Shown here in pieces: positions 1,137 to 18,243 of a stretch of DNA of 32,000 nucleotides (positions are counted from its first letter, which is position 1; each line of letters begins with the position of its first letter). The stretch is from the NCBI GenBank assembly GCA_000961575.1, contig LADP01000023.1, forward strand, positions 56,351-88,350, written 5' to 3'. A program made the translations under genes and the position numbers. The DNA comes from Peptococcaceae bacterium BRH_c8a (GTDB lineage: Bacteria; Bacillota; Desulfotomaculia; Desulfotomaculales; Desulfallaceae). The notes below the pieces were generated by a model. It worked only from the letters and a program-made list of their open reading frames with translations. It ran no database searches and had not been told where the DNA came from.

Positions 1137-1255
1137 CCTAAGTTGGGACATTCACCAATTGGGGACATTTCCTAAGTTGGGGACATTCCCTAAGTTGGGG
1201 ACATTCCCCCGCAGGGGGTGTGTCCCCTTTCCTTAAACGGGTGTGTCCCCTTTCC
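1137..1255. repeat. Array of GGGGACA-hairpin repeat half-sites (4 left halves + 2 right halves)
   Basis: cctaagttgggacattcacc / aattggggacatttcc / taagttggggacattccc / taagttggggacattccc / ccgcagggggtgtgtcccctttcc / ttaaacgggtgtgtcccctttcc. Directly abuts the yabG stop codon (1258-1256). Confidence 0.9.
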
Positions 1256-2149
1256 TTAATACGGCGATCGTGGTACACCGAGACGATGTTTGCCCCGGGT
1301 TTCGATCCCCCCGATACCGTCGAAACCGGTAATGGTTCCGGCAATAACTTCCCTTAAGGGGATCGGATCGTAAATCGAGGTATAGGCAACCTTTTCCATC
1401 ACAAAAACAGGATCAAAAGCATGTATTAAAACTCTTTTCGGTGAGCTGGCAAAGTTGGCCCCGGCGGACAGAAGAGCCTCGTAATGGGATTGGCATGCAC
1501 CGGCAAAAATAACCAAATCGTCACGGCTTTTTTCATATCGTCTGGCTGTTTGGACGGCGTTAACAAAGTTTGTTGTATTATGATAATTTTTAATTTCGGT
1601 AAAATCTTTAGTTCCTTTGGCAAACCCGTCATGTCCGGTTAGCACCAACAGATCCGGCCGGTGTTTAACCAACAAGTCATATACTTTTTCCGCCTGTTTA
1701 TCCTCAGCGATATGGTAACCATCGGCCGGTATTTTAAGCTGCTTATAAGTGGTCATGCACAAGTCCAGGTAATCACTGTCACCGTCTATATGCAGCACGC
1801 TGCCCGGCACGTCAAAACCCTCCACATCCCCGGGGCCGTCTGGGTCAGTCACCGATCTCATCAAACTCCTTTGGTGTTCTTCCCGGCGGCGCTTGAACAC
1901 ATTGCGCATAGCTTCGTGGTTCTTGGCCAATGTCATACGCCAGTAATCTGCCACCCTGGATGGCTCAATCCGTTCTAAATCCTCCAACGGTGCCGTTGCA
2001 CAAAGGCGCACATCCAGACCTTTTAAAGAAACAATTTTACTACCTTCGATATCTTCAATATTAATTACTTTGAAATAAATATCATGTCTGTAAGACTTGC
2101 GCCCAACTATGTCACCTACCCTTATTTCTCCCACAGCATCCCCTCCCAC
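1256..2149 (-). CDS. yabG: Sporulation-specific protease YabG (peptidase U57)
   Basis: Colinear with B. subtilis YabG as I recall it: GDIVGRKSY..D..F.., LVLTGHD, IFAGACQSH.E.L..AGANFASSP.RV.IHA.DP, GGIETRG. The likely true start is GTG at 2134 (RBS GGGAGGGGA 5 nt upstream) rather than the ORF-track start at 2149. Confidence 0.9.
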   Translation of the reverse strand: MGGDAVGEIRVGDIVGRKSYRHDIYFKVINIEDIEGSKIVSLKGLDVRLCATAPLEDLERIEPSRVADYWRMTLAKNHEAMRNVFKRRREEHQRSLMRSVTDPDGPGDVEGFDVPGSVLHIDGDSDYLDLCMTTYKQLKIPADGYHIAEDKQAEKVYDLLVKHRPDLLVLTGHDGFAKGTKDFTEIKNYHNTTNFVNAVQTARRYEKSRDDLVIFAGACQSHYEALLSAGANFASSPKRVLIHAFDPVFVMEKVAYTSIYDPIPLREVIAGTITGFDGIGGIETRGKHRLGVPRSPY

Positions 2150-2406
2150 GGCGCATTTTTACATTATTATGAATTTGGGGCTTAAAAGTGTGTGTCCAAG
2201 TGGAAATTAATTGCCAAGTTAAGACAACGTAACCTTTTACCGTTTTCCAGCATATTTTAAATAAATGCTCCATATTCTGTAAATTAATGTTTTAGAAAAG
2301 CCTATTAGAATATGCTTTTCCAGGATCATCTTTCCTAAGTTAGTTTCAACTGAGTGAATCTTGGTAAGAGTTTTGGTGGGGAATTAAAATCGGGTGGGGA
2401 ATCAAC

Positions 2407-3219
2407 ATGTTTGCAGCAGTAATACCCGTTAAAAATGAAGCTAAAAGCCTGGAGCAAGTTGTGTTTAACCTGACCGCTAATTTCCTGGATTTGATTATCC
2501 CTGTTTTAAACGGTTGTACGGACAATTCCTTGTCCATACTGGAAGAATCAAACTGCCCTATCCTGGCGCCGCTATGTTTCAACGAACCACTGGGCATAGA
2601 CATCCCCAGAGCTGTAGGAGCCCTAGTTGCACGCAATCTTAATGTAGAGGGCGTAATTTTTGTCGATGGCGATATGACCGGCGCCAATAGCGCAGTTATA
2701 GGTCAATTGTTAAGTGCCGTGCGCCAAAAGGGGGTAGATTTGGCCCTCACTGACTGCTATCCCCCCTATAACTACCACCACTTAAGCCCACAAGCCTCCT
2801 GCCTACTGGCCATACGCCGGAAACTTAACAGTAACCTGGGCCTTTTGAACAGTATCGGCTCAGCTACCCCTTGTCACGGTCCGCATGCTGTTTCCGGACA
2901 TCTGTTGCGGATGATGGAACCAGCCGATTTTGCCGTTCCTCCTATGCTACTGGCTAAAGCAGCATACGGGGGTATGATAATCGGGCTGGGAGCGGAACTT
3001 CCTCACATGATGTTGGGTTCCCCTATCCGCAGCGGCGATCATGCTCAGCGCATCGTAGAAACTATCATCGGCGACTGCCTGGCCGCCCTGCAAATGAAGG
3101 ACGGCAAACCGGGAAGCAGATATTTAACCGGGCGGGAGTATATCGGATACCACGCCCAGCGGCGGTTTGACTTGTTAAACGCCTTTGCTTCCGGCGTGAT
3201 TACAGGCGATTGTTTTTAA
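2407..3219 (+). CDS. GT-A fold (family-2-like) glycosyl/nucleotidyl transferase-like protein
   Basis: RBS GGTGGGGA upstream of the ATG. The N-terminus AVIPVKNEAKSL and a VDGDM (DxD-like) motif are typical of GT-A nucleotide-sugar transferases. The rest is not recognisable to me. Confidence 0.5.
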   Translation: MFAAVIPVKNEAKSLEQVVFNLTANFLDLIIPVLNGCTDNSLSILEESNCPILAPLCFNEPLGIDIPRAVGALVARNLNVEGVIFVDGDMTGANSAVIGQLLSAVRQKGVDLALTDCYPPYNYHHLSPQASCLLAIRRKLNSNLGLLNSIGSATPCHGPHAVSGHLLRMMEPADFAVPPMLLAKAAYGGMIIGLGAELPHMMLGSPIRSGDHAQRIVETIIGDCLAALQMKDGKPGSRYLTGREYIGYHAQRRFDLLNAFASGVITGDCF

Positions 3220-3264
3220 TTTCAGGTAGACCACCATGCCGCTACTCAACATCAGCAGAAAATA

Positions 3265-3511
3265 AAAAAACCAGCCTTCGCGGCGATCCGGTGATATCCG
3301 GAGCGAACGGTGCACCTGGATGCGTTGATTAGCCCGTCATAGCCCCGAATTCATGGCTGCTTAGGGCGTAACCAAACGGGTATGCAGTTTGTGCCATGTG
3401 GTAACAATAACCGGCTCCAATCACAACATTAAGAATTGCAAAAGAGAGCGGAGCGATATCACCGGAGCGCCGCGCCCACTACAACCAACGCTTAAAGTAT
3501 TTTCAGGGTAG
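3265..3511. repeat. Structured repeat family B, long form (MITE-like, with ~160-bp internal segment)
   Basis: The outer 40 bp (aaaaaccagccttcgcggcgatccggtgatatccggagcg) and the last 42 bp (ccgcgcccactacaaccaacgcttaaagtattttcagggtag) match the reverse complement of 11840-11921 at about 95%. The internal segment 3306-3467 is bounded by the inverted repeat CGCGGCGnTCCGGTGATATC. Confidence 0.85.
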
Positions 3512-3525
3512 TTAAATTAGTCCTC

Positions 3526-3566
3526 CTAAAATAATTAACCCCAGCCTGTTCACCGGGGTTAATTAT
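3526..3566 (-). terminator. Rho-independent terminator downstream of the YkuK-like gene
   Basis: Perfect 12-bp stem ATAATTAACCCC / GGGGTTAATTAT (3531-3542 / 3555-3566), followed by a U-run on the minus strand. Confidence 0.7.
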
Positions 3567-3568
3567 AG

Positions 3569-4039
3569 TTACTTGGTATGCTTATCTGCTACGCACGATG
3601 CACCATATGCGTCAGGCTTAATTTTGGCTTGAAACCCGCTGCCGGTTACCATACCCACAACTTCTTTAATCAAATCCCGGGTTTCCCCCTGCGTGCCAAC
3701 ATCAATATGGATTTCCACCGGCATTTCCGAGTATCCGTTTTCGGAAAACTGTTTGGTAATCTGTCCGCCTAATTCTAGGCTTAGCGCTGTTTCGTAAAAT
3801 ATTTTTTGGCGTAGGCTTTTAATTTTGCTATGAGTTTTTTTGCGGTAATAATAACGAGCCCCTTTGCCCAACCTGTGTACCACCACGGCGCTGATAAAAC
3901 AAGTATTATCCCTAACCATTGAATCAGTGCCGACGATTATTTTATAAGATGATGACGTAAGGCCCCGGATATATCGGTGAATATCCTCCATCATTTCCAA
4001 GAATGACAACCTGCCCATGGAGGGACTGTTGAAAAACAA
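3569..4039 (-). CDS. YkuK/DUF458-family RNase H-like protein
   Basis: TTG start with RBS AAGGAG. FFNSPSMGRLSFLEMMEDIHRYI...YKIIVGTDS...ISAVVVHRLGKGARYYY...IHIDVG matches my recollection of the YkuK family. Confidence 0.7.
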   Translation of the reverse strand: MFFNSPSMGRLSFLEMMEDIHRYIRGLTSSSYKIIVGTDSMVRDNTCFISAVVVHRLGKGARYYYRKKTHSKIKSLRQKIFYETALSLELGGQITKQFSENGYSEMPVEIHIDVGTQGETRDLIKEVVGMVTGSGFQAKIKPDAYGASCVADKHTK

Positions 4040-4061
4040 ACTGGTCCATCTCCTTTACATC

Positions 4062-4092
4062 AGTTGGGGAAAGGAGGTGTGTCACCTTTCCT
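4062..4092. repeat. Degenerate GGGGACA-hairpin repeat copy (intergenic, ksgA/YkuK-like)
   Basis: agttgggga--aaggaggtgtgtcacctttcc. The left half is partly deleted and the right half has one mismatch. Confidence 0.7.
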
Positions 4093-4123
4093 CAATTGTA
4101 ATTACTTTACGGCAAGCGCATAT

Positions 4124-5020
4124 TTATAACAAATAGGCATTGGTATATGCATCAGCCAACCGGGCAAATTCCCCTAGGCTGAGGGTCTCCCCCCGACGGC
4201 CCGGTTCAATATCCGCTTGTTGGAAAACACCTAACCACATCTCCTTGGATATTCGTTTGTCGATACAGCCGACAGCATTGAGCAAAGTCTTCCTGCGCTG
4301 TTGAAACCCGGCCCGCACCAGGGCAAAAAATACTTTTTTATCTTTCACCGATACCGCCGGTGTATCCCTGACATCCAGTCTGACCACCGCCGAGTCCACT
4401 TCCGGCCGCGGTATAAAAACCGTCCGGGGAACCCGAAACACCATCTCGGTATGCGCATAAAAATTAACCGCTAAGGTTAGCGCACCGTACTCAGGTGTAT
4501 CTGGCCGGGCCATAATCCTCCGGGCTACCTCTTCCTGCACCATGACCACTATTCGGTTAATGGAAGAATGCTTTTCTAGTAAGTGCATAATCAGTGGAGT
4601 GGTAATATAATAGGGCAAGTTGGCCGCTACTTTGTACTGTGTGACCACATCACCCGTAAAAGGGGACGAGGTGTGTCCCCTTTCCGCTTTCACCAAACTG
4701 TCAAAATCGGTTTTAAGGGCATCCGACTCAATTATATGCACGTTATCTAGCCCGGTCATGGTCTCTTCCAACACGGGGATTAAATTCCGGTCTATTTCCA
4801 CCGCCAATACCTGCCCGGCTCTGGCAGCCAGGGAACGGGTGAGCGCGCCAAGTCCAGGTCCGATTTCTACCACCGTGTCCGCAGGACTAGGCTCAACGGC
4901 AGCTACTATTTTCCTTATAATATTGCCGTCAATTAGAAAGTTTTGACCCAGGCTTTTTTTTATCCTAAAACCGTGGCGAGAAATTAACTCCTTGACTACA
5001 GCTGGCGAAACAGGATCCAT
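4124..5020 (-). CDS. rsmA: 16S rRNA (adenine1518/1519-N6)-dimethyltransferase RsmA/KsgA
   Basis: KKSLGQNFLID, VVEIGPGLGALT, ANLPYYITTP and FQQRRKTL motifs. The likely start is ATG 5020 (RBS GGAGG 8 nt upstream); the ORF-track start at 5041 has no RBS. Confidence 0.93.
   Translation of the reverse strand: MDPVSPAVVKELISRHGFRIKKSLGQNFLIDGNIIRKIVAAVEPSPADTVVEIGPGLGALTRSLAARAGQVLAVEIDRNLIPVLEETMTGLDNVHIIESDALKTDFDSLVKAERGHTSSPFTGDVVTQYKVAANLPYYITTPLIMHLLEKHSSINRIVVMVQEEVARRIMARPDTPEYGALTLAVNFYAHTEMVFRVPRTVFIPRPEVDSAVVRLDVRDTPAVSVKDKKVFFALVRAGFQQRRKTLLNAVGCIDKRISKEMWLGVFQQADIEPGRRGETLSLGEFARLADAYTNAYLL
4658..4687. repeat. GGGGACA-hairpin repeat copy inside the ksgA coding sequence (in-frame)
   Basis: aaaaggggac-gaggtgtgtcccctttccgc. 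Translated on the minus strand as ..K-AERGHTSSPF-TG.. in the variable loop just before the ANLPYY motif. Confidence 0.8.
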
Positions 5021-5055
5021 AAATAAGCCTCCGAAAAACATTAAATTAGGGCATT

Positions 5056-5093
5056 ATTTGGGGACATTCCCCCGCAGGGGGTGTACCCTTTCC
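5056..5093. repeat. GGGGACA-hairpin repeat copy (intergenic, yabE/ksgA)
   Basis: atttggggacattcccccgcagggggtgt-accctttcc. Confidence 0.9.
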
Positions 5094-5153
5094 TTTTTAA
5101 TATAAATAGAAGATCCTTACATTTACTATCATACCCTTTTTTATGGTAAAGTC

Positions 5154-5181
5154 AAAAAAGAAGGGGCTAAACCCCTTCTTT
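5154..5181 (-). terminator. Rho-independent terminator after yabE
   Basis: GAAGGGG-tttag-CCCCTTC stem followed by a U6 run on the minus strand. Overlaps the TAA stop. Confidence 0.75.
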
Positions 5182-6196
5182 ATTCAAGCACATATACTTT
5201 TACTTTTTTAACTCCCCAGCGCTTAGCTTCATTTCTGGTCTCTAGAAATACGTCAATTCGGCTACCCTTTATCTTGCCGCCCACATCCATGGCCCGACAG
5301 TGACCATAGCCTTCAACATATAACTTGGTTCCCAGCGGTATCACCGAAGGGTCAACCGCTACTATACCTACTTTGGGTTTGACCCCGGTTGCGGTATTAT
5401 TTCCAGTGTGCGTATAAGCCGTGGATACCATATCATAAGCCCTGGAGAACCTGATATCCTGACCACCCCGGGAAGCTACCTGTAGCGCACCCACTTTTAC
5501 GATTTGGTCCACCGGTTTTTTGACCACCACACTGTCCACCAGGCGCCTTTTAGTTTCCTTGCCGTTTTTGTATGTTATTTCCCATGATTTACGTTCCAGT
5601 CCCTCGGTGCCCTTCTGTACTACACTGGTAATGCCCCGGGCAATTTTACTGTCGTTTTCCCGGCGGACATTGAACTTAATGGGTACCTCTTCATCCATGG
5701 CACTTACCGTTATTAAATCTACTCTTACAAGCATATCCGGTTCCAACTTGGTTTCCAAACTTGGTGCAACCACATCCCGTTCACCCAGCGCTACATTACT
5801 TTCATCGATTAAATCGCCCACTGTTTCGACTGCTGTGTTGACTAGGCTTTCCTGCTCGCCAATCTGCAGAGTAACGGGTATGGCTCTGCGCACCATCACT
5901 GTCATTCCGTCCCGTAACATGGTATCCGGCAACGGTGTCACTTTGTCTATTACACCCAGTTCAACACCCTGCTCTTGCAATAGTTCGCTAACATCACCGG
6001 CAAAGGAACGAACTTCGATCTGCTCTCCTTCCACCTGCAAAATGACTTTATTCTGAGCACTGGCATAAGCCACAAAAATAGCCGAAATCAACATCAGAAC
6101 CACAAACGCAGCCGCCGCTACACGCGGCCCCGCCAAGTTGTCGGCTATCCCAGTCGACAACTCCTTGTTGCTGTTACCTTTTTCCCTTATATCCAC
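5180..6196 (-). CDS. yabE: YabE-like cell-wall protein (DUF348 repeats + G5 + 3D/RlpA-like domain)
   Basis: An N-terminal TM segment, then repeated 'V.V.V.G....V.T....V.D.L.E.G' DUF348-like units. The C-terminus reads ...TATGVKPKVGIVAVDPSVIPLGTKLYVEGYG...A.D.GG.IKG.RIDVF (3D domain). Its position between tatD and ksgA matches B. subtilis. Confidence 0.85.
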   Translation of the reverse strand: MDIREKGNSNKELSTGIADNLAGPRVAAAAFVVLMLISAIFVAYASAQNKVILQVEGEQIEVRSFAGDVSELLQEQGVELGVIDKVTPLPDTMLRDGMTVMVRRAIPVTLQIGEQESLVNTAVETVGDLIDESNVALGERDVVAPSLETKLEPDMLVRVDLITVSAMDEEVPIKFNVRRENDSKIARGITSVVQKGTEGLERKSWEITYKNGKETKRRLVDSVVVKKPVDQIVKVGALQVASRGGQDIRFSRAYDMVSTAYTHTGNNTATGVKPKVGIVAVDPSVIPLGTKLYVEGYGHCRAMDVGGKIKGSRIDVFLETRNEAKRWGVKKVKVYVLE

Positions 6197-6439
6197 TCGT
6201 TAAACAAACCTCCCAATTAAACAACACAATTAACCCGTCAATTAAATAAAAAAAACTTGGTTGATATCTATTCGCCGTTACTGGATAAATCTCCTGCCGG
6301 TGGTACCTTGTAACTATTGCATTCGCGCTGGTAGTTTAAAAAAAATTACCGTACATTAATTTTCCATTTAATCTGTGGGACGTGTTTTATACTTTAACAC
6401 TTTACATGTACTTTGGAAACCCTTTCTACTGCATAATAC

Positions 6440-6480
6440 AAAAACCCCCACGGTGTTGTCGATATGACAACCCATGGGGG
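6440..6480 (-). terminator. Rho-independent terminator after prkA
   Basis: CCCCCATGGGTTGTC-atatc-GACAACACCGTGGGGG followed by UUUUU on the minus strand. Confidence 0.8.
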
Positions 6481-6495
6481 CAATATTAATCAGCC

Positions 6496-9207: not shown

Positions 9208-9332
9208 GGATAGCCCCCCTCAATCAGTACGACAATATCGGTTACAAGGTGGCCACACGCTTAAAATGACGGCCCGCATCAAGTATAACACGGGGTGGCC
9301 AAATAGTGACAAGTCCTTATTCTAAATTTAGA

Positions 9333-9477
9333 GGATGTTTGAAAAGTCCGCGCGAGATCCACTTCGAATTTCTACGTTGGCTTGGCTTTTGCGGTGCTCA
9401 TGTATTATATATACACTCCGCTCCTCAAAGCCTTCGCCGCCTTGAACTTCTCGTGTCTCTCGTGCTCCTTTTCAAAC
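9333..9477. repeat. Structured repeat family C, copy 1 (MITE-like, ~145 bp)
   Basis: About 85% identical to the reverse complement of 16519-16664. Termini are GGATGTTTGAAAAG ... CTTTTCAAAC (inverted). The right end overlaps the tatD TGA stop (9474-9472). Confidence 0.85.
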
Positions 9478-10248
9478 TTTTAAATTAAACAATTTTTCAG
9501 CGTTGGCTGTGGTGGCTAGGGCCAGCTCTTCAATAGTGATGCCCCGCAGTTGGGCAATGTGCTCGGCCACGTAGCGCACGTGGGCCGGTTCGTTGCGCCG
9601 CCCGCGAAAAGGTTCGGGCGCCAGATAAGGGCAGTCGGTTTCAATCAGCAGACGCTCTAGCGGCACTTTTACCGCAATATCTTTTAGCTTGGCAGCGTTT
9701 TTAAAAGTAACCGGGCCGGCCAGTGAAATATAAAAACCCATTTCTATGCTCTCACGGGCTACCTCCAAACTGCCGCTGAAGCAATGCATTACTCCGCCCG
9801 CCGGGCTAATGCCGTCGGAGCGCAAAATCTCCAGCAAGTCTCCGAAAGCGTCCCTGGAATGGATGATTACAGGCATGTTAAGCTCCCGCACCAGGGCCAA
9901 CTGCTCCCGAAACACCCGCTGCTGGATTGGTCGGGGGGATAGGTCTCGGTAATAATCCAAACCCATTTCACCCATAGCCACCACCCCGGGACGGCGTGCC
10001 AACTGCTCCAGGCGGGCCAGGTAATCATCAGGTACGTCTTCGGCATCGTGGGGGTGCACCCCTACCGAGGCCACCACCGAAGGCCGCTCCCCGGCCATGT
10101 TTGCCGTTTCTTCAGAAGATTTTAGATCAAAGGCGGCACACAGCACCCGGGTAACTCCCGCTTCTTGCATGCGCCCAAATACTTTGTCCAGGTCTTGTTT
10201 AAATTGTTCGTTGTTCAGGTGCACGTGGGTGTCAAACAGTTCAACCAT
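9472..10248 (-). CDS. tatD: TatD-family metal-dependent hydrolase/DNase (YabD)
   Basis: FDTHVHL, GE.GLDY, VIIHSRDA, LLIETDCPYL motifs. The ATG lies 1 nt after the metG stop, with its RBS inside the metG 3' end. Confidence 0.92.
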   Translation of the reverse strand: MVELFDTHVHLNNEQFKQDLDKVFGRMQEAGVTRVLCAAFDLKSSEETANMAGERPSVVASVGVHPHDAEDVPDDYLARLEQLARRPGVVAMGEMGLDYYRDLSPRPIQQRVFREQLALVRELNMPVIIHSRDAFGDLLEILRSDGISPAGGVMHCFSGSLEVARESIEMGFYISLAGPVTFKNAAKLKDIAVKVPLERLLIETDCPYLAPEPFRGRRNEPAHVRYVAEHIAQLRGITIEELALATTANAEKLFNLKV

Positions 10249-11930: not shown

Positions 11931-12262
11931 AAAATATAAACGCCCCTGGTTTACCCAGGGGCGAATTGTTTCGCGGTACCACCCTAATTTGCCGGCCCCT
12001 TAAAGGGCAAGCCTCGTTTAAGGTACGGGGAGAGTTCCCGATACCCCAAGCCTGATAACGGTGCTTAACCGGTATAGCTTATCGGGAAAGAGCTAGCACT
12101 TAATTGCGCTTTCCGTTCAGCTTACAGTTCCGAAGCCATGTTCAACCCGTTCTCCCCGGCGGGCTTTCACCTGTTCCCGCTCTCTGTACGGCTCTTCCGG
12201 ATTTACTCCCTCTCCATCATCACCGATGTATCTTATGTAAATAAAAAGCTATTAAAAATAAC
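11931..12262 (-). promoter_or_regulatory. T-box riboswitch leader (Met specifier) controlling metG
   Basis: Read on the minus strand. Stem I has AGAGAG...GGTGAAAG. The specifier-loop context is GAAC-AUG-G (AUG = 12139-12137). The canonical T-box sequence AAATTAGGGTGGTACCGCG lies at 12000-11982. The terminator is CGCCCCTGG-gtaa-ACCAGGGGCG + UUUAUAUUUU (11963-11931). Confidence 0.88.
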
Positions 12263-12356: not shown

Positions 12357-12412
12357 TTGACTTTTAATGCCATCATTGGTACCATTTACTTGCATACAGG
12401 TTTTTTGTCGAA
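12357..12412 (+). promoter_or_regulatory. abrB promoter with downstream Spo0A (0A) box
   Basis: TTGACT (12357-12362), 17 nt spacer, TGgTACCAT extended -10 (12377-12385). TGTCGAA (12406-12412) matches the 0A-box consensus TGNCGAA. B. subtilis abrB has 0A boxes at the equivalent position downstream of the start site. Confidence 0.45.
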
Positions 12413-12447
12413 TTGTGTCACTTATTTATCAACGGGGAGGGGAAGTC

Positions 12448-12702
12448 TTGAAGTCAACGGGTATTGTAAGGAAAGTGGACGAGCTTGGTCGCGTGGTTAT
12501 ACCAATTGAATTGCGCCGTACTTTGGGCATCGATGAAAAAGACGCCTTGGAAATTTACGTCGACAATGAGAAAATTATTCTCAAAAAATACGAGCCCGCC
12601 TGCGTATTTTGCGGCGATGCCGCCGACGTGCAGCATTACCGTGGCAAACTGGTATGCCGGAACTGTGCCGTGGCCATGTTTGAAAACGTTAAGGCCATGT
12701 AA
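12448..12702 (+). CDS. abrB: Transition-state regulator AbrB (SpoVT/AbrB swapped-hairpin N-domain; Cys4 C-terminus)
   Basis: TTG start at 12448 after RBS GGGGAGGGGA. LKSTGIVRKVDELGRVVIPIELRRTLGI..KDALEIYVD.EKIILKKY is nearly identical to the B. subtilis AbrB N-domain. The C-terminal CVFCG...CRNC is a clostridial-type zinc ribbon. It is the only conserved gene on the plus strand, as in B. subtilis. Confidence 0.92.
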   Translation: MKSTGIVRKVDELGRVVIPIELRRTLGIDEKDALEIYVDNEKIILKKYEPACVFCGDAADVQHYRGKLVCRNCAVAMFENVKAM

Positions 12703-12729
12703 TGTGACTACATATTTTATATGAGCCGT

Positions 12730-13590
12730 TTATTCGGATACGTGTATCTTTTTGTATAATTCCCGTCTGGGGAGATTTCTCAGGCGGGCTACTTTTTTTA
12801 TAGCTTCATTTGTAGCAAGACCCTCTTGCATCAACAGTCGCACGTGTTCTTCCGGCGGCGTGGCGGCCCATTTTTCAGCCGTTTTACCGCTTTCTTCCCG
12901 GGCACCTTCAATGACTAGCACGAATTCGCCCCGGGGAGTCTGGGTGGTAAAGTGTTCTTTCAGCCCCGTCAGGGTGTCCCGCAGCAATTCTTCATGCAGC
13001 TTGGTTAGTTCACGGGCGGCACAGGCCCGGCGATCACCCAGGGTTTCGATCAGGTCTTGCAGCGTTTTTAGTACCCGGTGCGGCGCTTCATACAGGACAA
13101 CCGTCCTGGTTTCGCCCGCCAATTCGGCTAGACGTCGGTTGCGACCACTGCCTTTGGCCGGTAAAAAGCCCTCAAAAACAAACCGTTCAACGTTCAGGCC
13201 GGAAACAACGAGCGCCGCCAGCAGAGCGCTCGGCCCCGGCAACGGCACCACTGGTATCCCCCTGTCTACTGCTTCGCGCACCAAATCTTCGCCGGGATCA
13301 GATATCCCAGGCGTACCAGCGTCGCTAACCAGGGCCACTATATCGCCACTAGTCAGTCGCTCCAGCAAATATTCCCCCTGGCGGCGGCGGTTGTGCTCAT
13401 GGTAACTGGTGGTGGGGGTATGGATATCGTAATGACTTAACAGACGTCGGGTGCGCCGGGTGTCCTCTGCAGCCACCAAGTCAGCTTCACGAAGCGTCTG
13501 CAGTACCCGCAGGGTTATATCTTCCAGATTGCCGATAGGCGTTGCGCAAAGATACAAAATGCCCCTGTTTTTATCGCTTTTATCTGTCAT
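12730..13590 (-). CDS. rsmI: 16S rRNA (cytidine1402-2'-O)-methyltransferase RsmI (YabC)
   Basis: LYLCATPIGNLEDITLR, AEDTR, SDAGTP.ISDPG motifs. The likely start is ATG 13590 (MTDKSDKNRGILY...). The ORF-track 5' extension to 13674 overlaps yabA. Confidence 0.92.
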   Translation of the reverse strand: MTDKSDKNRGILYLCATPIGNLEDITLRVLQTLREADLVAAEDTRRTRRLLSHYDIHTPTTSYHEHNRRRQGEYLLERLTSGDIVALVSDAGTPGISDPGEDLVREAVDRGIPVVPLPGPSALLAALVVSGLNVERFVFEGFLPAKGSGRNRRLAELAGETRTVVLYEAPHRVLKTLQDLIETLGDRRACAARELTKLHEELLRDTLTGLKEHFTTQTPRGEFVLVIEGAREESGKTAEKWAATPPEEHVRLLMQEGLATNEAIKKVARLRNLPRRELYKKIHVSE

Positions 13591-13595
13591 CCCGC

Positions 13596-13916
13596 TCACT
13601 CCCGTTCCCGACGAAAAAAGGCGGCACAAAACAGACACTCGCTGGTCCGGGTTTGACCAAAGTGGATATTGCAAATATGAAAACCTTCCGCATAAAGATT
13701 CTCCAGGTTCTGTCGCCCGGTCACCTGTACATCGGTGTCGCCAACTACCCGGGTTTCCCCTGCCTGTTGCACATCATATACCAATGCCAGATGCTGCCTA
13801 AGCTTTTCATTTTCCGCTTCCAGCGCCCCGACCATGTTTTTCATGCTTTTGATCTCGGCCAGCAGGTCTTGGGCTCTGGTTTCCAGCGCCTTCATTTTTA
13901 TTGTTATGTCTCTCAA
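13596..13916 (-). CDS. yabA: DNA replication initiation control protein YabA
   Basis: An N-terminal coiled coil, then the C-terminal zinc motif [13 protein letters not shown]....ECLFC (compare B. subtilis YQEGFHICNVHYG...DCLFC). The best start is TTG 13916 (RBS GGAAGGTGG 5 nt upstream). The ORF-track ATG at 13949 has no RBS. Confidence 0.85.
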
Positions 13917-14736
13917 TTTGACCACCTTCCGGAAAGTCGGTGTTGACATCCGTAACGGGGTATCCCTGAATCAGTTTACTTTCCTGTAATTCTACGCTAA
14001 CGGTTTGTTTGAAAATGTTAATTCCCACCACTCTGCCCATCCCGTCAGGTGTAATCACCCGTTTACCCGGCTCGGGAAAACTTTCCCTGGCCTGCTCATA
14101 AGCCTCATTTTCAAATTTAAGGCAGCACATTAAACGGCCGCAAATGCCGGATATCTTGGTGGGGTTTAGGGACAGGTTCTGCTCCTTGGCCATCCGAATG
14201 GACACCGAGGAAAAGTCCGACAGCCAGGTGGCACAGCACAATTCCCGACCGCAGCAACCCAGGCCGCCCATCATTTTGGCCTCATCACGAACACCTATCT
14301 GGCGTAGTTCAATCCTGGTGCGAAATACCGCGGCCAGATCCTTGACCAGCTCGCGGAAATCGATCCGCCCATCGGCGGTAAAATAAAAGATAATTTTATT
14401 ACCGTCAAAAGTCTGCTCCACATCCACAAGTTTCATGGGCAAACCGTGAGTAGTTATTTTTTCCACGCAAATTTCATAGGCTCGGGTTTCTTTTTCCTGG
14501 TTGGCCCGCAGTTGCTCTATATCTACATCGCCAGCCCGGCGCAGCACTTTTTTTAGCGCACCTACCACTTCTTCCTCGGGTACATCTCGGGGGCCGGCAA
14601 CAACGGTGCCAAATTCGACACCACGGGATGTCTCTACGATTACCCCATCACCCACCGACAGGAACAAATCCCCGGGGTCAAAATAATATACCTTGCCTGC
14701 CGCCTTAAATCTTACTCCTACTACCAGGCACGACAA
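13807..14736 (-). CDS. yaaT: PSP1 domain protein YaaT/RicT (stage 0 sporulation / RNase Y maturation complex)
   Basis: TTG start after [38 protein letters not shown] and [12 protein letters not shown] / [11 protein letters not shown] cysteine motifs. The low-complexity C-terminal ~40 aa overlaps the yabA 5' region in another frame. Confidence 0.9.
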
Positions 14737-14783
14737 TGGCCATACCTCCTGTCAAACTTGCCTCATAATCCATCCATTGCATT

Positions 14784-14822
14784 AATTGGGGACATTCCTT
14801 GAAGGAGGTGTGTCCCCTTTCC
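14784..14822. repeat. GGGGACA-hairpin repeat copy (intergenic, holB/yaaT)
   Basis: aattggggacattccttgaaggaggtgtgtcccctttcc. Confidence 0.9.
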
Positions 14823-14829
14823 TTTTATC

Positions 14830-15807
14830 CTAAAATCCGGCGATTTTTAGTAGCAAGGAATCCAACGCCAGGCGCTGGTTTACATTACCCGCCAACCGAC
14901 GAGCCGTTTCCTCCGCTGTTAACAGTATGTCCAGTACTTCTCGCCGGTCATAAGCACTTGCCAGCTTAGCTAGATCATCCCGCCGGTCAATGTTAATTAA
15001 CAATTCACTTAGCCCTGTTTGCTGTATTATCATCACATCTCGGAACATTACCGTCAGGTAGTTTACAAATTCCTGTGCGTCTTCACGGCCTGCTATCTCT
15101 TCCGGTGGAACCGGCATTGCACGCCGGCTATTAACAACCAGGCTCAGCGCCACCTCCAGTGCCCGGTCACGGCCGGCCGACCCGCCAAGCAGCGCCAGGG
15201 CCCGCCCCGGGCTTCCCCCGGACAATACTGCCATGGTGTGGGCCAGTTCGGCGCTGCCCGCTTCCTGTGTAATCACTTTGGCCACATCTTCCCGGGACAA
15301 ATTATTAAACCGGTAACACAGGCAGCGGGACAGCACAGTTGAAGGTATTCTCGCCGGATCGTCGGTAACCAGGATGAACACCACCCCGGCCACGGGTTCT
15401 TCCAAGGTTTTTAAAAAACTGTTGGCGGCTTCGGTGGTCATCCTCTCGGCCTGTTCCACCAAGAAAACCTGCCGGCCCTCGCCAAAGGAGGTAAACACGG
15501 CACCGTCGCACACCTCTCTAAGTTGCCTTATTTTTATCGAAGCCCCGTCGGGGCGGATTAGATGCAAATCGGGGTGCCCACCCCGCTTGGAACGGGTGCA
15601 GTCGTCGCAAACTTCGCACGCGTCTCCATCACCCCCGGAGCACAGCAGGGCCCTGGCAAACGCCAGACCGGCAGTCTTTTTGCCAACACCAGGCGGCCCG
15701 TAAAAGAGATACGCATGGGACACCCGGTTGGATACTAGAGCACCAGCCAGGCTAGTCTTAATTTTTTCATGTCCCCTCAGTTCACGTAAAGCGGTCAACG
15801 GGCTCAC
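14830..15807 (-). CDS. holB: DNA polymerase III delta' subunit
   Basis: SHAYLFYGPPGVGKKT, a CxxCxxC zinc module, FLVEQAERMT, T.LSRC. The probable start is TTG 15798 (RBS GGAGTGA) rather than GTG 15807. Confidence 0.9.
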   Translation of the reverse strand: MSPLTALRELRGHEKIKTSLAGALVSNRVSHAYLFYGPPGVGKKTAGLAFARALLCSGGDGDACEVCDDCTRSKRGGHPDLHLIRPDGASIKIRQLREVCDGAVFTSFGEGRQVFLVEQAERMTTEAANSFLKTLEEPVAGVVFILVTDDPARIPSTVLSRCLCYRFNNLSREDVAKVITQEAGSAELAHTMAVLSGGSPGRALALLGGSAGRDRALEVALSLVVNSRRAMPVPPEEIAGREDAQEFVNYLTVMFRDVMIIQQTGLSELLINIDRRDDLAKLASAYDRREVLDILLTAEETARRLAGNVNQRLALDSLLLKIAGF

Positions 15808-15832
15808 TCCAAATAAATTTATAGGGTTAGCG

Positions 15833-16456
15833 TTAGGTCAGGACTTGCTCCAAGGAGACCAGCACCGACCGGTGCACTTCTTCCACCGCTACCCCGGCCT
15901 GGACTACTTTAAACATTCGGGGCCACTGGGCTGCCTGTTCCAGGTAACCACGGCGCACCTGCCGAAAAAAGTCGCTCTTTTCTGCTTCCAACCGGTCGGG
16001 CAAACGGTCTCCCAGCACCCGGCTGATACTTTCTTCCACCGACAGATCTAGTAATATTACAACATCTGGCACCAGTCCGCCAGTGGCCAATTCATTCAAA
16101 CGCGCCAGAAACTCCTTGTCCAAACCACGTCCACCGCCCTGGTAGGCCAGGGTGGAGTATATGAACCGGTCGCAAAGCACCGTATCTCCTCTGCGCAGGG
16201 CGGGTAAAATTTTTTCGGTGACATGCTGGGCCCGGTCGGCAGCGTATAAAAATGCTTCGGTGCGGCGGGTAATATCCCGGCAGGAAGGATCCAACAGCAG
16301 TGCCCGCAGCCGGTTGCCTATATCTGTACCACCGGGTTCCCGGGTACATAACACCGACATACCTTGCTTCTCCAACCATTGAGCCAGCAGTTTCACCTGG
16401 GTTGTCTTACCTGAACCATCAATTCCTTCAAAAACAATAAACTTCCCCGCTGTCAA
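15833..16456 (-). CDS. tmk: Thymidylate kinase
   Basis: FIVFEGIDGSGKTTQ P-loop, REPGGT, DRF..S..AYQG. TTG start with RBS GGAG. Confidence 0.95.
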   Translation of the reverse strand: MTAGKFIVFEGIDGSGKTTQVKLLAQWLEKQGMSVLCTREPGGTDIGNRLRALLLDPSCRDITRRTEAFLYAADRAQHVTEKILPALRRGDTVLCDRFIYSTLAYQGGGRGLDKEFLARLNELATGGLVPDVVILLDLSVEESISRVLGDRLPDRLEAEKSDFFRQVRRGYLEQAAQWPRMFKVVQAGVAVEEVHRSVLVSLEQVLT

Positions 16457-16482
16457 AAAAATTCATCTCCCGTACGTGGTTA

Positions 16483-16667
16483 TCGCGCGGACTTTTCGAA
16501 CATCCGTTTTAAATAAGAGTTCGATAAGGAGCACGAGAGACACGAGAAGTTCAAGGCGGCTTGGTTTTTGCGGAGCGGAGCGTATATGAGATACGTGAGC
16601 ACCGCAAAAGCCGAGCCAACGCAGAAATTCGACGGGGATCTCGCGCGGACTTTTCGAACATCCGTTT
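16483..16667. repeat. Structured repeat family C, copy 2, plus an extra solo terminal segment
   Basis: The core 16519-16664 is the inverse of 9333-9477. It has a 16-bp stem GGCTTGGTTTTTGCGG / CCGCAAAAGCCGAGCC. The 25-bp end CGCGCGGACTTTTCGAACATCCGTTT occurs twice in direct orientation (16484-16509 and 16642-16667). The second overlaps the decarboxylase stop codon. Confidence 0.85.
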
Positions 16668-18243
16668 AGGCATCAACGACCTGGATGGTATCTAACTTCG
16701 GGTCAGCAGCTCCCTGCTGATGCAATTCACATTCACGCACCTGTTGTAAGTATTCTACAACCGCCGGGGTAATTTCCTCCCCGGGGTAGATGGCGGTTAT
16801 TCCCGGCGGGTACACAGCCACGGATTCAGCGCTAACCCGGCCGGTGGATCGCTCCAGGGGTATAATCCGACGCGGTGCCAACCAGGCCTGGCGCGGGGTT
16901 AATACCTGCGGCGGTATCGGTGGGCCCGCAGGCAACGGAATGGGTGACCGGGGACTGTGGCCTTGTTCGGTCTGGCAGCTAAGTTCGGCCAGACCATTGA
17001 GCAACGCAATAATGTCAGATTTTTGGGTGCCCAGTGATAGTACCGCCACTATATTGAACGCATCGGACATTTCCAAGTGGATACCGTATTTATGAGCCAG
17101 CCATCGGGCCGCTGTGTGCCCTGAAATGCCCAACTGGCGTACCGAAATCACCAGTCGGGTGGGGTCGTGTCCGGCTGTACCGGAACTTCCCAGGTGCTCA
17201 GTGCCCAGCGTCGTCAGACCGGGCATCTTATTAATTATTGGTACCGCCTCGTGAACCCAGCCTAAAAGCTTGTCCAGAGTCTCTCTGCCATGACAGGTCA
17301 GGTAACCCCGGGCGGCGTCCAGGGAAGCCATCAACAAGTACGACGGGCTAGAGGTCTGCAACAAGCGCAGCACCTCCGCCACTCTTTCCCGGTCCACATA
17401 AGTTGGGGACATTCCTCCGCAGGAGGTGTGTCCCCTTTCCGCTATCGACATTCCTCCGCAGGAGGGGTGTCCCCTTTCCGCTCGTTCCGCTTTTCCCAAG
17501 TGCAGCCAGGATGCCTGGGTTAAAGCGCCTCCAGTTTTATGCACACTCTGCACCACCGCGTCAGCACCTAGGGAAAGTGCATCAGCGGGCAGATCGGGAT
17601 GTAAGCGCAGGTGTGTACCGTGAGCCTCGTCAACCAGCAATGGTACATTGTACCGATGGCAGATTGCCGCCGCTGCACCCAAATCACCCGTCACACCGTA
17701 ATAGTTTGGGTGAACTGCCAGTACCGCTCCGGCACCGGGGTTTTGCCGCAACCCATCAATCAGATCTTCCGGCCGAAACCCAGTAGCAAATTCAAAGCCG
17801 GGCACCACTTCGGGGGCCAAGAAAACCGGGCGGGCGCCGCTTATAATAAGCCCACCCAGCACGGAGCGGTGGGCGTTACGTGGCAGTACAAGCGGCCGGT
17901 TCTGATCACAACTAGCAGCTATGAGGGCCTGAATGCCAACTGTGGTGCCGTTAACCAAAAAAAATGTATGCCGGGCCCCGAAAAGCCCGGCGGCTTTTTC
18001 CTGGGCCGCCGCGATAACCCCGCCGGGGTTATGCAAATCGTCCAGGCCTTCCAATTCAGTTACATCCAAACCAGGTAGCCCGTCCATAAATTGGGGACAG
18101 GGGCATAAGTTTCCGCCATGACCGGGTACATGCATCCTTACCGGGCGTCTACGGCGGTATTCTTCCAGCGCATTAACCAGCGGTAGATCCGCAATTGGGG
18201 AGGGTTGTACCCTTTTTTCTTTATTAAACGGCAAAATTTTCAC
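16666..18243 (-). CDS. Orn/Lys/Arg decarboxylase family (PLP-dependent, YaaO-like)
   Basis: MHVPGHGG, LDDLHNP, VLPRNAHRS, VQSVHKT (PLP-Lys), SSPSYLLMASLD. Same position as B. subtilis yaaO, upstream of tmk. Contains an ~80-bp repeat-derived in-frame insertion. The start (GTG 18243 or TTG 18234) is uncertain. Confidence 0.9.
   Translation of the reverse strand: MKILPFNKEKRVQPSPIADLPLVNALEEYRRRRPVRMHVPGHGGNLCPCPQFMDGLPGLDVTELEGLDDLHNPGGVIAAAQEKAAGLFGARHTFFLVNGTTVGIQALIAASCDQNRPLVLPRNAHRSVLGGLIISGARPVFLAPEVVPGFEFATGFRPEDLIDGLRQNPGAGAVLAVHPNYYGVTGDLGAAAAICHRYNVPLLVDEAHGTHLRLHPDLPADALSLGADAVVQSVHKTGGALTQASWLHLGKAERAERGHPSCGGMSIAERGHTSCGGMSPTYVDRERVAEVLRLLQTSSPSYLLMASLDAARGYLTCHGRETLDKLLGWVHEAVPIINKMPGLTTLGTEHLGSSGTAGHDPTRLVISVRQLGISGHTAARWLAHKYGIHLEMSDAFNIVAVLSLGTQKSDIIALLNGLAELSCQTEQGHSPRSPIPLPAGPPIPPQVLTPRQAWLAPRRIIPLERSTGRVSAESVAVYPPGITAIYPGEEITPAVVEYLQQVRECELHQQGAADPKLDTIQVVDA
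17401..17490. repeat. Two tandem GGGGACA-hairpin repeat copies inside the decarboxylase CDS (in-frame)
   Basis: agttggggacattcctccgcaggaggtgtgtcccctttccgc + tatcgacattcctccgcaggaggggtgtcccctttccgc + partial tcgttccgc. Translated as AER-AERGHPSCGGMSI-AERGHTSCGGMSPT. Confidence 0.9.

Follow-up and report, generated by a model that had tools for sequence, protein, structure and literature searches.

Copies of a hairpin repeat, found in the 32-kb stretch of DNA analyzed here (the window), occupy intergenic spacers that are unrelated to one another and have also entered conserved genes, where they keep the reading frame. On balance, we favor the view that the repeat is a new family of short (~45 nt), non-autonomous, REP-like palindromic mobile elements that would be moved in trans as folded single-stranded DNA. 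The initial annotation had placed it at six loci on the + strand; we find four of them to be intergenic (1137-1255, 4062-4092, 5056-5093, and 14784-14822) and two to lie in frame within genes (4658-4687 in ksgA and 17401-17490 in a decarboxylase gene). Inspection of the sequence and a covariance model recovered all six, and we agree that this is a genuine hairpin repeat family. Neither an Rfam family nor a published description of it was found.

The full pattern GGGGACA-N10-24-TGTCCCC was counted three times in the window (0.00 expected), and the right arm GTGTGTCCCCTTTCC, allowing up to three mismatches, eight times (1.07 expected), always on the + strand. The covariance model, trained on 133 copies and run on the 32-kb window with filters off, matched positions 1191-1235, 17399-17443, 14782-14825, 5054-5096, 17447-17471, 4656-4688, and 4060-4094. 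Beyond the six loci, a seventh, decayed copy lies at ~18191-18226; no further convincing copies were detected elsewhere in the window by the model. By its tally, the window holds three complete units, one truncated tandem unit, and four decayed copies, all on the + strand.

In the unit of ~45 nt, a hairpin of 31-33 nt lies between a short left flank and a right flank that reads TTWCCTTA or TTTCCGCT. Within the hairpin, GGGGACATTCC is followed by a variable inner stem and GGTGTGTCCCC, and then by TTWCC. The 7-bp outer stem (GGGGACA/TGTCCCC) and an asymmetric 2x2 internal loop, TT opposite TG, are fixed, while the inner stem of 4-5 bp is free in sequence and keeps its pairing. Conservation of the outer stem cannot be measured free of bias, since the exact-pattern search fixed it; the internal-loop T, the GG before it, and the TT after the stem are at least 90% conserved though not forced by the search pattern. 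Conserved sequence reaches past the arms on one side only. GNA occupies 74 of 90 triloops, and 10 more copies have GAA closed by T-G. Longer forms of 60-67 nt carry GACCCCAAAGC-type loop inserts, and some copies sit in the apex of a different palindromic repeat, whose head is likewise GGGGAC. Predicted energies of the DNA hairpin do not differ between the strands and thus do not pick out the active strand.

As initially annotated, the inner stem reads CCCCC/GGGGG at 1205 and 5068 and CCTCC/GGAGG at 17414. This compensatory change holds in the larger set: in the covariation analysis of 133 copies, 98.2% of cells are paired and three inner pairs covary (UA 103, CG 24, GC 2; CG 109, UA 8, GC 5; CG 35, UA 35), with a score that none of 500 shuffles reached. 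The further claim that compensation argues for selection on the hairpin stands as regards covariation, not as proof of selection on an RNA: by itself, compensatory change is no such proof, and in a DNA palindrome it can also stem from template switching or gene conversion. The proposed SD/anti-SD reading of CCTCC/GGAGG is not conserved, as CCTCT/AGAGG, CCTC/GAGG, CCCC/GGGG, and others are about as frequent.

In the 1137-1255 array, a complete unit (1191-1235, + strand; 67.9 bits, E 2e-18) is laid out as TAAGTT, the hairpin at 1197-1227 (GGGGACATTCCCCCGCAGGGGGTGTGTCCCC), and TTTCCTTA. Left half-units precede it at 1145-1156 (GGGACATTCACC, degenerate and, by sequence, the outermost array member), 1161-1172 (GGGGACATTTCC), and 1179-1190 (GGGGACATTCCC), all on the + strand; the last of these pairs in the array fold with the right half-unit at 1239-1250. 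This right half-unit, GGGTGTGTCCCC, and its flank TTTCCTTAA together span 1239-1259 (+ strand), and the flank supplies the stop codon of yabG on the - strand (TAA, 1256-1258). Hence the claim that the repeat is stop-free in all six frames is correct for the 41-nt core (17402-17442), not for the 45-nt unit with its TAAG...CTTA flanks. Another complete unit (14782-14825, + strand; 61.3 bits), with a slightly imperfect inner stem, occupies the holB to yaaT spacer. The copy in the yabE to ksgA spacer (5054-5096, + strand; 40.4 bits) has a damaged right arm (GTACCC, 2-nt deletion), and the degenerate copy in the ksgA to rnmV-like spacer (4060-4094, + strand; 13 bits) has lost its interior by deletion, its right arm reading TGTCACC. 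Because most copies are intergenic, the statement that "every host gene" is on the minus strand was misleading.

The copy within ksgA (4656-4688, + strand; 21.7 bits) is partial, GGGGAC-7 nt-GTCCCCTTTCC, and in frame; it encodes AERGHTSSPF, a 9-residue insertion compared with B. subtilis KsgA (PDB 7v2l). The Orn/Lys/Arg-type decarboxylase gene (16666-18234, - strand) contains, in frame and on the + strand, a complete unit (17399-17443; 64.9 bits), a second, 5'-truncated tandem unit (GACATTCC...GGGGTGTCCCCTTTCC, 17447-17479; 27.5 bits) placed 39 nt (13 codons) after the first, and, at its N terminus, the decayed remnant (18191-18226; 7.6 bits). Its product carries ~30 extra residues that are absent from homologues of 480-489 aa. 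Coding insertions are a sizeable minority of copies and add a short peptide, mostly ERGHTSxGGMSP, without destroying the gene. The in-frame placement suggested earlier by comparison with Rickettsia palindromic elements (RPEs) is therefore real.

Comparison of five syntenic orthologous regions, including L042, L243, L244, and L245, revealed copies gained, tandemly duplicated, decayed, and deleted, all within ~10% protein divergence. Two insertions postdate the split from L243, and one of them was later deleted in L244, leaving ATGTCCCC. At the site of the 18191-18226 remnant, decayed in the window, L042 has two copies in tandem, L244 has one, and L243 and L245 have none. The holB-yaaT copy is unique to the window, the orthologues in L243 and L245 having no copy there; at another orthologous spacer the hairpin is kept in three species. 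About half of all copies carry extra left (60 of 135) or right (49 of 135) half-units, whose number varies between close relatives and differs between orthologous loci of 78-90% identity. In the L041 and L004 arrays, right half-units have inner-stem remnants unlike the central unit (GGAGG versus AGAGG or GAAGG), which indicates different source copies. This analysis caught no recent transposition whose empty site is clean at the level of single nucleotides.

The hairpin is also present in at least 116 blocks of other genomes. The matches listed include six cultured strains, and the host lineages among them are Desulfotomaculum-like bacteria, Syntrophomonas, Pelotomaculum, Dethiobacter, and others. 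Most hosts are spore formers, and in several classes of anaerobic Firmicutes the arms have the very same sequence. Near a seed copy, a further copy turns up about once every 18 kb, and extrapolation from this density suggests that there are probably hundreds of copies per genome. The single orientation reported initially is true of the window, not of the wider sample, where the bias is only ~2:1: among the matches listed, 40:21 between co-directional genes (116 other loci) and 85:49 against GC skew. In the window, the conserved 5' flank (GGAAA-GGGGACAC...) is on the G-rich strand, the lagging-strand template; the strand with this flank is the G-rich one in 63% of other copies. A bias for the lagging-strand template is the direction reported for IS200/IS605 elements, and in IS608-type elements the orientation bias is stronger than the ~2:1 seen here.

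We suggest that the unit is recognized and moved as a folded single DNA strand by an enzyme that acts in trans and is specific for its sequence and structure, the obvious type of candidate being an IS200/IS605- or RAYT-like HUH tyrosine transposase. If a single-stranded DNA hairpin is what the enzyme recognizes, one would expect arms and mismatch to stay frozen and the inner stem to conserve pairing alone. The ~2:1 bias may arise because insertion at the replication fork is strand-specific or because selection acts against copies in the terminator-like orientation inside operons, and most copies would be passengers without host function. We agree with the initial annotation that the window has no RAYT-like gene, and it has no Y1 gene either; two PF01797-validated queries found no Y1_Tnp in flanking DNA totaling ~1.7 Mb. 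No protein family, transposases included, recurs beside the copies, and the genes between inverted copies are housekeeping genes. RAYT-like subclasses are sparse and occur mainly in Cyanobacteria, Bacteroidetes, and Proteobacteria, and only IS200-type genes are common in Clostridia (Quentin et al. 2018, PMC6006769).

Could the hairpin instead be a host RNA element, kept because, once transcribed, it shields the 3' ends of mRNAs, stops transcription, or guides processing in operons? The RNA hairpin is strong (-24.2 kcal/mol for the + strand and -21.9 for the - strand, z-scores about -4 to -5), many copies lie in short spacers of co-directional gene strings, the + strand stem is followed by UUUCCUU(U/A), resembling a weak terminator, and one orthologous spacer has retained it in three species. 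We nevertheless find this unlikely. For the copies of the window, as for two thirds of those between co-directional genes, the mRNA would have the sequence of the other strand, which lacks the U tail; ten copies among the matches listed lie between divergent genes; and copies occur within coding sequences and decay freely. An mRNA stabilizer or terminator needs no set sequence, yet arms and mismatch are identical across classes; the lack of an Rfam family also speaks against it, and the GNA preference fits DNA, such triloops being typical of stable DNA hairpins, not RNA hairpins. It is a shade less probable that a host nucleoid, segregation, or sporulation protein reads GGGGACA half-sites in duplex DNA, slippage changing their number. 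A dimer bound to the duplex leaves unexplained why the inner stem covaries, why GNA loops are preferred, and why the asymmetric mismatch is conserved; orphan half-sites apart from hairpins are rare, copies sit within genes and decay, and the sites would still require a route to new places. Such an array would fit the 7-bp arm identical in distant lineages, the mostly spore-forming hosts, the half-units arranged as iteron-like direct repeats (spacing 13-18 bp on the left, ~13-20 bp on the right), and the clustering of seven copies within 17 kb of an origin-proximal gene block whose surrounding 34 kb have none.

No dedicated enzyme would be needed if hairpin-induced slippage, with template switching or gene conversion, created, homogenized, and spread the palindrome. 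In keeping with this, no enzyme was found, half-unit and tandem copy numbers shift between close relatives, microhomologies such as ACATTC occur at unit boundaries, and the native TTTCCTCT at the internal decarboxylase site resembles the right flank of the element, as would suit microhomology-primed copying. Slippage accounts for local amplification, however, not for arrival at unrelated loci, and leaves the same 45-nt sequence in different bacterial classes unexplained; the inner-stem remnants of the L041 and L004 arrays point to different source copies. We hold this to be as improbable as the duplex-binding array. Lowest of all we rank a very short DDE-type MITE, its arms serving as 11-bp terminal inverted repeats (GGGGACATTCC/GGGGACACACC) for cut-and-paste movement by a classical transposase encoded elsewhere. 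Conserved arms around an interior varying in sequence and length (60-67-nt forms) and elements nested in one another, which is common for MITEs, would agree with it. Target-site duplications were, however, absent from 51 single copies at any boundary offset (k = 3-6) and from gene-internal sites, conservation past the arms is one-sided, 925 kb contained no gene bracketed by a pair of arms, the neighborhoods of the copies share no recurrent transposase, and we know of no MITEs as short as this unit of 31-45 nt.

The mobile palindromic element that we favor has reasonable analogues in REP elements and RPEs, as initially proposed. Like the REP/BIME/REPINs of Proteobacteria, mobilized by RAYT (TnpA_REP), it is a short (20-40 nt) imperfect palindrome, mostly intergenic, probably (by extrapolation) in hundreds of copies per genome, oriented by a conserved asymmetric feature, clustered or mosaic in arrangement, free of target-site duplications, and at some positions common to related species. 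It differs in its head (GGGGAC, not GTAG or CGTC), in arms identical across several classes rather than lineage-specific, in the sizeable minority of copies in frame within genes, in adding same-side half-units (L-L-L-core-R-R) where BIMEs alternate whole REPs, and in that no RAYT was found here, such genes being described as sparse beyond a small number of phyla (PMC6006769). With IS200/IS605 ends and their non-autonomous derivatives (PATEs) it shares a hairpin with mismatches that would be the recognition element, a short conserved sequence abutting one side only, the lack of DDE-sense inverted terminal repeats and target-site duplications, and a bias in the direction expected for lagging-strand-template insertion. 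Theirs, however, are two different subterminal hairpins over hundreds of nucleotides, and here the bias is much weaker and no TnpA or TnpB gene with hairpin-repeat ends was found. RPEs, of 100-150 nt and known only from Rickettsia, are likewise palindromic repeats in frame in conserved protein genes, adding a short peptide without destroying the gene; they have no sequence similarity to the hairpin unit, which is three times shorter and for which coding insertions are the minority. BOX of Streptococcus pneumoniae, composed of 45-59-nt modules in the order boxA-boxB(n)-boxC and confined to one species group, is also a modular intergenic Firmicute repeat with strong predicted secondary structure and an internal subunit number variable between copies and strains; unlike our repeat, it is not organized as one hairpin plus same-side half-units, and its sequence is unrelated. 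Integron attC sites come after the gene cassettes of unidirectional arrays beside an integrase and have RYYYAAC/GTTRRRY cores, neither of which was seen for the hairpin repeat. The two are alike in their conserved outer inverted sites around a center that is variable in length and sequence yet paired, and in unpaired bases that mark the functional strand of a site read, as the hairpin repeat would be, as folded single-stranded DNA.

All six loci at which the initial annotation had placed a hairpin repeat were recovered by a covariance model (R1), built from an alignment (A1) of 133 non-identical copies and run against the window with filters off. They lie at 1137-1259 (an array), 4060-4094, 4656-4688 (in ksgA), 5054-5096, 14782-14825 and 17399-17479 (in a PLP-dependent decarboxylase gene). 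A seventh, decayed copy was found at ~18191-18226, which brings the window to seven copies within 17 kb. Counted by unit, three are complete, one is a truncated tandem unit and four are decayed. No further convincing copies were detected in the window by the model, the remaining hits being reverse-strand echoes and chance matches (E >0.1), nor were any seen in the 14 kb to the right within the window or in the 10 kb past either end. The pattern GGGGACA-N10-24-TGTCCCC matched the window three times, on the + strand (1197, 14788 and 17405), versus 0.00 matches expected in shuffles; the right arm GTGTGTCCCCTTTCC (at most 3 mismatches) matched eight times, always on the + strand, versus 1.07 expected.

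The window is an origin-proximal housekeeping block of a spore-forming Firmicute and is read on the - strand, which is the leading strand as judged by GC skew. Its genes include the decarboxylase gene, tmk, holB, yaaT, metS (with a T-box), tatD, prkA, yabE, ksgA, an rnmV-like gene and yabG, followed further on by SRP RNA and dnaX. Subsurface metagenome contigs and the MAG GCA_003512665.1 carry sequence identical to that of the window. Two of the six reported loci, and the remnant, lie inside genes; the other four occupy intergenic spacers. The stop codon of yabG is supplied by the flank of the copy at 1137-1259. The sole sizeable + strand gene of the first 20 kb (2407-3219, 270 aa, a JGI call) encodes a product with no Pfam or NCBIfam match, whose N terminus resembles, by eye only, a nucleotide-diphospho-sugar transferase fold. 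In Rfam searches of the window, only three ordinary - strand RNAs passed the gathering score: the T-box leader upstream of the methionyl-tRNA synthetase gene (11954-12229), the large SRP RNA (26329-26593) and a 91-nt tRNA (26636-26726). Nothing at 1100-1300 approached threshold, and the repeat had no Rfam match at the gathering and E-value thresholds.

The consensus of the 133-copy alignment is TnnnTT-GGGGACA-TT-CCTCn-GnA-nGAGG-TG-TGTCCCC-TTTCCTTA. Because the search pattern forced the outer stem, together with some of the internal loop, the conservation seen there is biased; unforced positions are still at least 90% conserved, namely the T on the loop's right side, the GG preceding it and the TT after the stem. 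The right flank is commonly TTWCCTTA or TTTCCGCT; left flanks include TACGTT, TAAGTT and TCCATC, and the head GGGGACA, part of the forced stem, is invariant in the 133 copies. Because of its TT/TG internal loop the unit is asymmetric and hence oriented. Compensatory changes of the inner stem, first noted between copies of the window, hold in the larger set: none of 500 shuffles of the 133 copies reached the observed covariation score. At pair 18-28, 103 copies have U-A, 24 have C-G and 2 have G-C; at pair 19-27, 109 have C-G, 8 have U-A and 5 have G-C; and at pair 21-26, C-G and U-A occur in 35 copies each. Overall, 98.2% of cells are paired, versus 48-73% when partners are shifted by 1-3 columns. 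We conclude that the hairpin is maintained by compensatory change, with its arms frozen. After maximal pairing a three-base loop is present in 90 of 137 copies and has the form GNA in 74 of these 90 (GAA 52, GCA 17, GTA 4); in 10 further copies a GAA loop is closed by T-G. The predicted folding energies are ~-12 kcal/mol for DNA, alike on both strands, and -24 and -22 for RNA; equal DNA energies led us to reject folding energy as a source of strand asymmetry.

The family is not confined to the few copies of the window. A scan of 185,579 species-representative genomes with the pattern GGGGACATTCC-N8-14-GTGTCCCCTT revealed the element in at least 116 genome blocks elsewhere (blocks and contigs from other genomes and metagenomes carry L-numbers below). 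Six cultured hosts are among the matches listed: Desulfoscipio geothermicus, Desulfotruncus alcoholivorax, Desulfotruncus arcticus, Sporotomaculum syntrophicum, Desulforadius tongensis and Syntrophomonas zehnderi. Host MAGs are labelled Desulfotomaculum, Pelotomaculum, Peptococcaceae, Syntrophomonadaceae, Dethiobacter, Desulfosporosinus and others, and the arms are identical in Desulfotomaculia, Syntrophomonadia and Dethiobacteria. Some MAGs (L095, L014, L028, L043, L073 and similar) are labelled Desulfovibrio, Deltaproteobacteria or Syntrophobacterales; since they match Dethiobacter or Desulfotomaculum contigs over kilobases at 80-90% nucleotide identity, their taxonomic labels or binning are probably wrong. 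The bulk of copies is intergenic, and additional copies near a seed copy occur at ~1 per 18 kb. Neither IMG/VR viral contigs (hairpin pattern) nor PLSDB plasmids (blastn with the 45-nt consensus) gave a match.

Copies occur as single units and in several composite forms. Core units may carry extra half-units, each on its own side, the left being GGGGACATTCC plus 2-7 nt with a period of 13-18 and the right being (G)GAGGTGTGTCCCCTTWCCTTA; an extra left unit is present in 60 of 135 copies, an extra right unit in 49 and both in 29. The window array at 1137-1259 has the order L-L-L-core-R (left and right half-units around the core) and folds into a nested hairpin that joins the second left unit (GGGGACATTCCC) to the right unit (GGGTGTGTCCCC), and TAAG to CTTA, by base pairing. 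Whole-unit tandems with 37-39-nt periods, whose later units lack the first GGG, are found in the window at 17399-17479 (39 nt, 13 codons) and in L042, L050 and L073. Long-loop variants of 60-67 nt carry GACCCCAAAGC-type inserts at the apex. A CRISPR array was considered and rejected: copies are single or abutting, with 13-39-nt periods and no unique spacers, and Rfam CRISPR models scored far below threshold.

Other copies sit within a second repeat, either at its apex or in one arm; this repeat is a 65-nt imperfect palindrome (GGGGACGGTTCCATCGTCTTCC...GGTGACGCTCGAACCGTCCCC) that shares the GGGGAC head. Dethiobacter-like genomes contain it in abundance, as do metagenomes from soda lakes, the subsurface and bioreactors (at least 120 metagenome contigs), and it stands alone or with the hairpin studied here at its apex (L128-L200, e.g. 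L128:1113-1177; L036:45-240; L040; L072:5854-5919). The possibility that it is the end of a full-length IS was rejected. In a metagenome scan with its 22-nt arm all 80 inverted pairs were 50-150 nt apart, so the 65-nt repeat is itself merely a hairpin. In L009 (1303-3291) one such 65-nt palindrome houses a group II intron (Rfam RF02001 at 1425-1595, RF01998 at 1637-1719), the start of which lies a few bases 3' of a hairpin copy at 1303-1335; the other arm of this palindrome is at 3270-3291. This intron shows that other hairpin-seeking elements use the sites of hairpin copies. When single copies were tested for a position at the apex of host hairpins, the excess of flank complementarity was marginal and came mainly from tandem copies.

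Half-unit numbers differ between orthologous loci that are 78-90% identical (L094/L095, L028/L060, L037/L104 and L069/L102, the last inside an ORF). In three species the element occupies the same spacer with a compensatory change of the inner stem (CCCC/GGGG versus CCTC/GAGG), and the surrounding spacer is no longer alignable; this retention cannot be read as purifying selection, because all these loci were ascertained by exact pattern. Five syntenic orthologues of the decarboxylase region (the window, L042, L243, L244 and L245) gave the neighbour-joining tree (L245,(L243,(L042,(window,L244)))) from four genes (1,317 ungapped residues). The region is free of copies in L243 and L245, whose decarboxylases are of the usual family length (489 aa). 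At the internal decarboxylase site a tandem pair is present in the window and L042, and just ATGTCCCC is left in L244; at the N-terminal site there is a tandem pair in L042, a diverged single copy in L244 and a decayed remnant in the window. Only the window has a complete copy in the holB-yaaT spacer; L042 shows a rearranged trace of it, and the spacers of L243 and L245 are short and empty. L244 carries in this spacer (4233-4360) a palindromic array unrelated to the hairpin, with ~7-nt units (left GTCAAAA/GTCGAAA, right GACCTTA/GACTTTC), and L042 yet another insert of ~130 nt; hence the spacer collects palindromic insertions. No empty site was recovered at the nucleotide level, as this spacer is unalignable between orthologues with another palindromic insert in each lineage, and no clean duplication is seen at the gene-internal sites. 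Within ~10% protein divergence, then, copies arrive, are duplicated locally, decay and are lost by deletion.

Two further repeats were observed in the window. One, of ~165 nt, is present at 16474-16667 (-) and ~9325-9500 (+), in inverted orientation and 87% identical; the copy between the decarboxylase gene and tmk has a 36-nt direct repeat on its two sides (16474-16509 / 16632-16667) and is missing from that spacer in L042, L243, L244 and L245. Its fold is strong (-74.9 kcal/mol) and it has no Rfam match; it may represent a small RNA gene or else be MITE-like. The other, a ~250-nt stretch at 3253-3511, is found two more times, at ~90% identity, on metagenome contig L119, whose assembly diverges from the window exactly there, indicating either a join in the assembly or a further repeat family, the third. 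The idea that L119 is a strain variant was rejected: where it differs from the window, an assembly join at another repeat is the cause, rather than variation in the hairpin element.

The 41-nt core is free of stop codons in all six frames, as had been reported, and the in-frame insertion into ORFs proposed by analogy with the Rickettsia palindromic elements (RPEs) was borne out in the decarboxylase, in KsgA and in further long ORFs of L004, L069, L102 and L011. The decarboxylase has ~30 extra residues (AERGHPSCGGMSIAERGHTSCGGMSPTY) in its major domain, which are missing from L009 and from homologues of 480-489 aa; KsgA has nine residues more than B. subtilis KsgA (PDB 7v2l). In other genomes long ORFs cross copies mostly in one frame (ERGHTSxGGMSP), and other frames are also seen.

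The uniform orientation noted earlier holds within the window, where all seven copies are on the + strand and antisense to every adjoining gene, but not as a general rule. At 116 other loci, with genes defined by a crude longest-ORF call, 40 copies between co-directional genes were antisense versus 21 sense, and inside ORFs 19 were antisense versus 4 sense; 14 copies lay between convergent and 10 between divergent genes. Relative to local GC skew the ratio was 85:49, GC skew and gene strand being confounded in 8-kb blocks. The orientation bias is therefore real but modest, and the strict polarity in the window probably arises because its copies share one replichore and one gene string. Two causes fit the bias: insertion at the fork may be specific to one strand, or the orientation that puts the hairpin plus UUUCCUU into mRNA may be selected against. 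An intrinsic terminator was rejected: the tail reads UUUCCUUA, all window copies are antisense to the genes, and antisense copies predominate elsewhere; a terminator consensus scan called none of the intact copies and flagged solely fragments of two decayed ones (5076-5091 and 18197-18217). On the - strand, yabE is followed by a conventional intrinsic terminator-like hairpin at 5157-5181 (AAAGAAGGGGTTTAGCCCCTTCTTT then TTTGAC), ~65 nt from the copy at 5054-5096; hence an operon terminator exists independently of the repeat.

Searches for a partner enzyme and a target were largely negative. No protein family recurs beside the copies, the second largest cluster of neighbouring proteins consisting of ORFs that read through the repeat. 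No Y1_Tnp or other Y1 transposase was detected in ~1.7 Mb of DNA flanking copies in two sets of loci; the queries, IS608 and IS200 TnpA, were confirmed as PF01797 members. Genes between inverted copies included no mobile-element genes (DsrC, DsrMK-like, CotE, YqeY and similar housekeeping genes), and in 925 kb no left and right arms lay kilobases apart around a gene. Flanking direct repeats (k = 3-6, any offset) were not in excess at 51 single copies, and no target-site duplication was seen at the gene-internal sites. Each unit has one hairpin, versus two subterminal ones in IS200/IS605-derived elements (PATEs), which insert beside a specific target of 4-5 nt that stays on one side. Next to the hairpin, on one side only, stands the conserved sequence GGWAA (TTWCC in reverse complement); as it travels with the unit inside arrays, it may belong to the element instead of the target. 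At the internal decarboxylase site the native sequence beside the insertion (TTTCCTCT in L243) resembles the right flank of the element, which could reflect a preferred target or microhomology-primed copying.

Taken together, these data define a dispersed palindromic repeat family that inserts in unrelated sites, genes included, turns over quickly and leaves no target-site duplication. From the frozen arms, the asymmetric mismatch, the free but paired inner stem, the GNA loops, the absence of a target-site duplication and the strand bias, we infer that the substrate is a folded single strand. Such a strand would be recognised by a sequence- and structure-specific enzyme, and IS200/IS605 and RAYT transposases are the known enzymes that recognise folded single strands. 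We therefore rank first, at slightly better than even confidence, an ssDNA hairpin mobilised in trans, its weakest link being the proposal that the enzyme would be HUH-type.

Four other readings rank behind it: a host RNA function, duplex binding sites, a DDE-type MITE and an enzyme-free origin. Arrival, duplication, decay and deletion are the life history of a mobile passenger rather than of a required site. In addition, d(GNA) triloops with C-G closure form unusually stable DNA mini-hairpins and RNA prefers tetraloops, so that the loop preference hints at DNA rather than RNA. A DDE-type MITE would have terminal inverted repeats flanked by a duplication of fixed length, which the element lacks. 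In the L004 and L041 arrays inner-stem remnants of the right units differ from the central unit, which fits nested insertion at the apex of another copy better than simple slippage; left and right units are, however, often unequal in number, so that slippage or deletion must also act. Beyond the ssDNA hairpin mobilised in trans, it is conceivable, if rather unlikely, that the element is the visible half of a novel ssDNA transposition system of anaerobic Firmicutes, with excision and re-insertion without duplication, preferably at hairpin apexes, by an enzyme that is neither RAYT nor a classical IS200 transposase, and with horizontal spread between classes. Insertion at apexes would account for the Russian-doll L-L-core-R-R arrays and for nesting in the 65-nt GGGGACGG palindrome, and horizontal spread for the identical arms in the three classes.

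To our knowledge, REP-like repeats and domesticated transposases have been studied almost entirely in Proteobacteria. The present repeat is palindromic, comparable to REP in abundance, and belongs to strictly anaerobic, mostly spore-forming Firmicutes; the six cultured strains that carry it make experiments possible. Its unusual features are arms that are identical at class-level distances, rapid expansion and contraction of half-unit arrays, and tolerance of in-frame copies in housekeeping proteins. Identification of the recognising enzyme could yield a new hairpin-specific DNA-processing system. In practical terms, the repeat breaks metagenome assemblies and, since every frame of it is open, inflates ORFs; predicted proteins also acquire spurious peptide repeats from it. 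A repeat model would improve the annotation of host genomes.

In the literature covered, which lies outside subscription journals, we found no published description of the repeat; neither Di Nocera et al. (2013) nor Quentin (2018; PMC6006769) names the host taxa or the motif. The element is a small palindromic interspersed repeat for which neither a published description nor an Rfam family was found. The analogy with REP drawn initially stands as regards a short imperfect palindrome in many dispersed, mainly extragenic copies, but fails at the head: REP has a GTAG or CGTC tetranucleotide at the palindrome end, whereas the 133 copies have GGGGACA at one end and TTWCCTTA at the other. REPIN-RAYT systems include, in the same genome, a single-copy, repeat-flanked gene for RAYT (a Y1 HUH enzyme); here the search covered ~1.7 Mb around copies and detected no Y1_Tnp. 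The analogy with RPEs extends to in-frame insertion into genes but not to size or host; RPE units (RPE-1 to RPE-8) are 100-150 nt long and belong to Rickettsia, versus 45 nt and Firmicutes here. Like BOX elements the repeat shows modular copy-number variation, and like attC it has conserved outer sites on either side of a centre that is variable but paired. The element works like REP, yet belongs to none of the REP, RPE, BOX and attC families.
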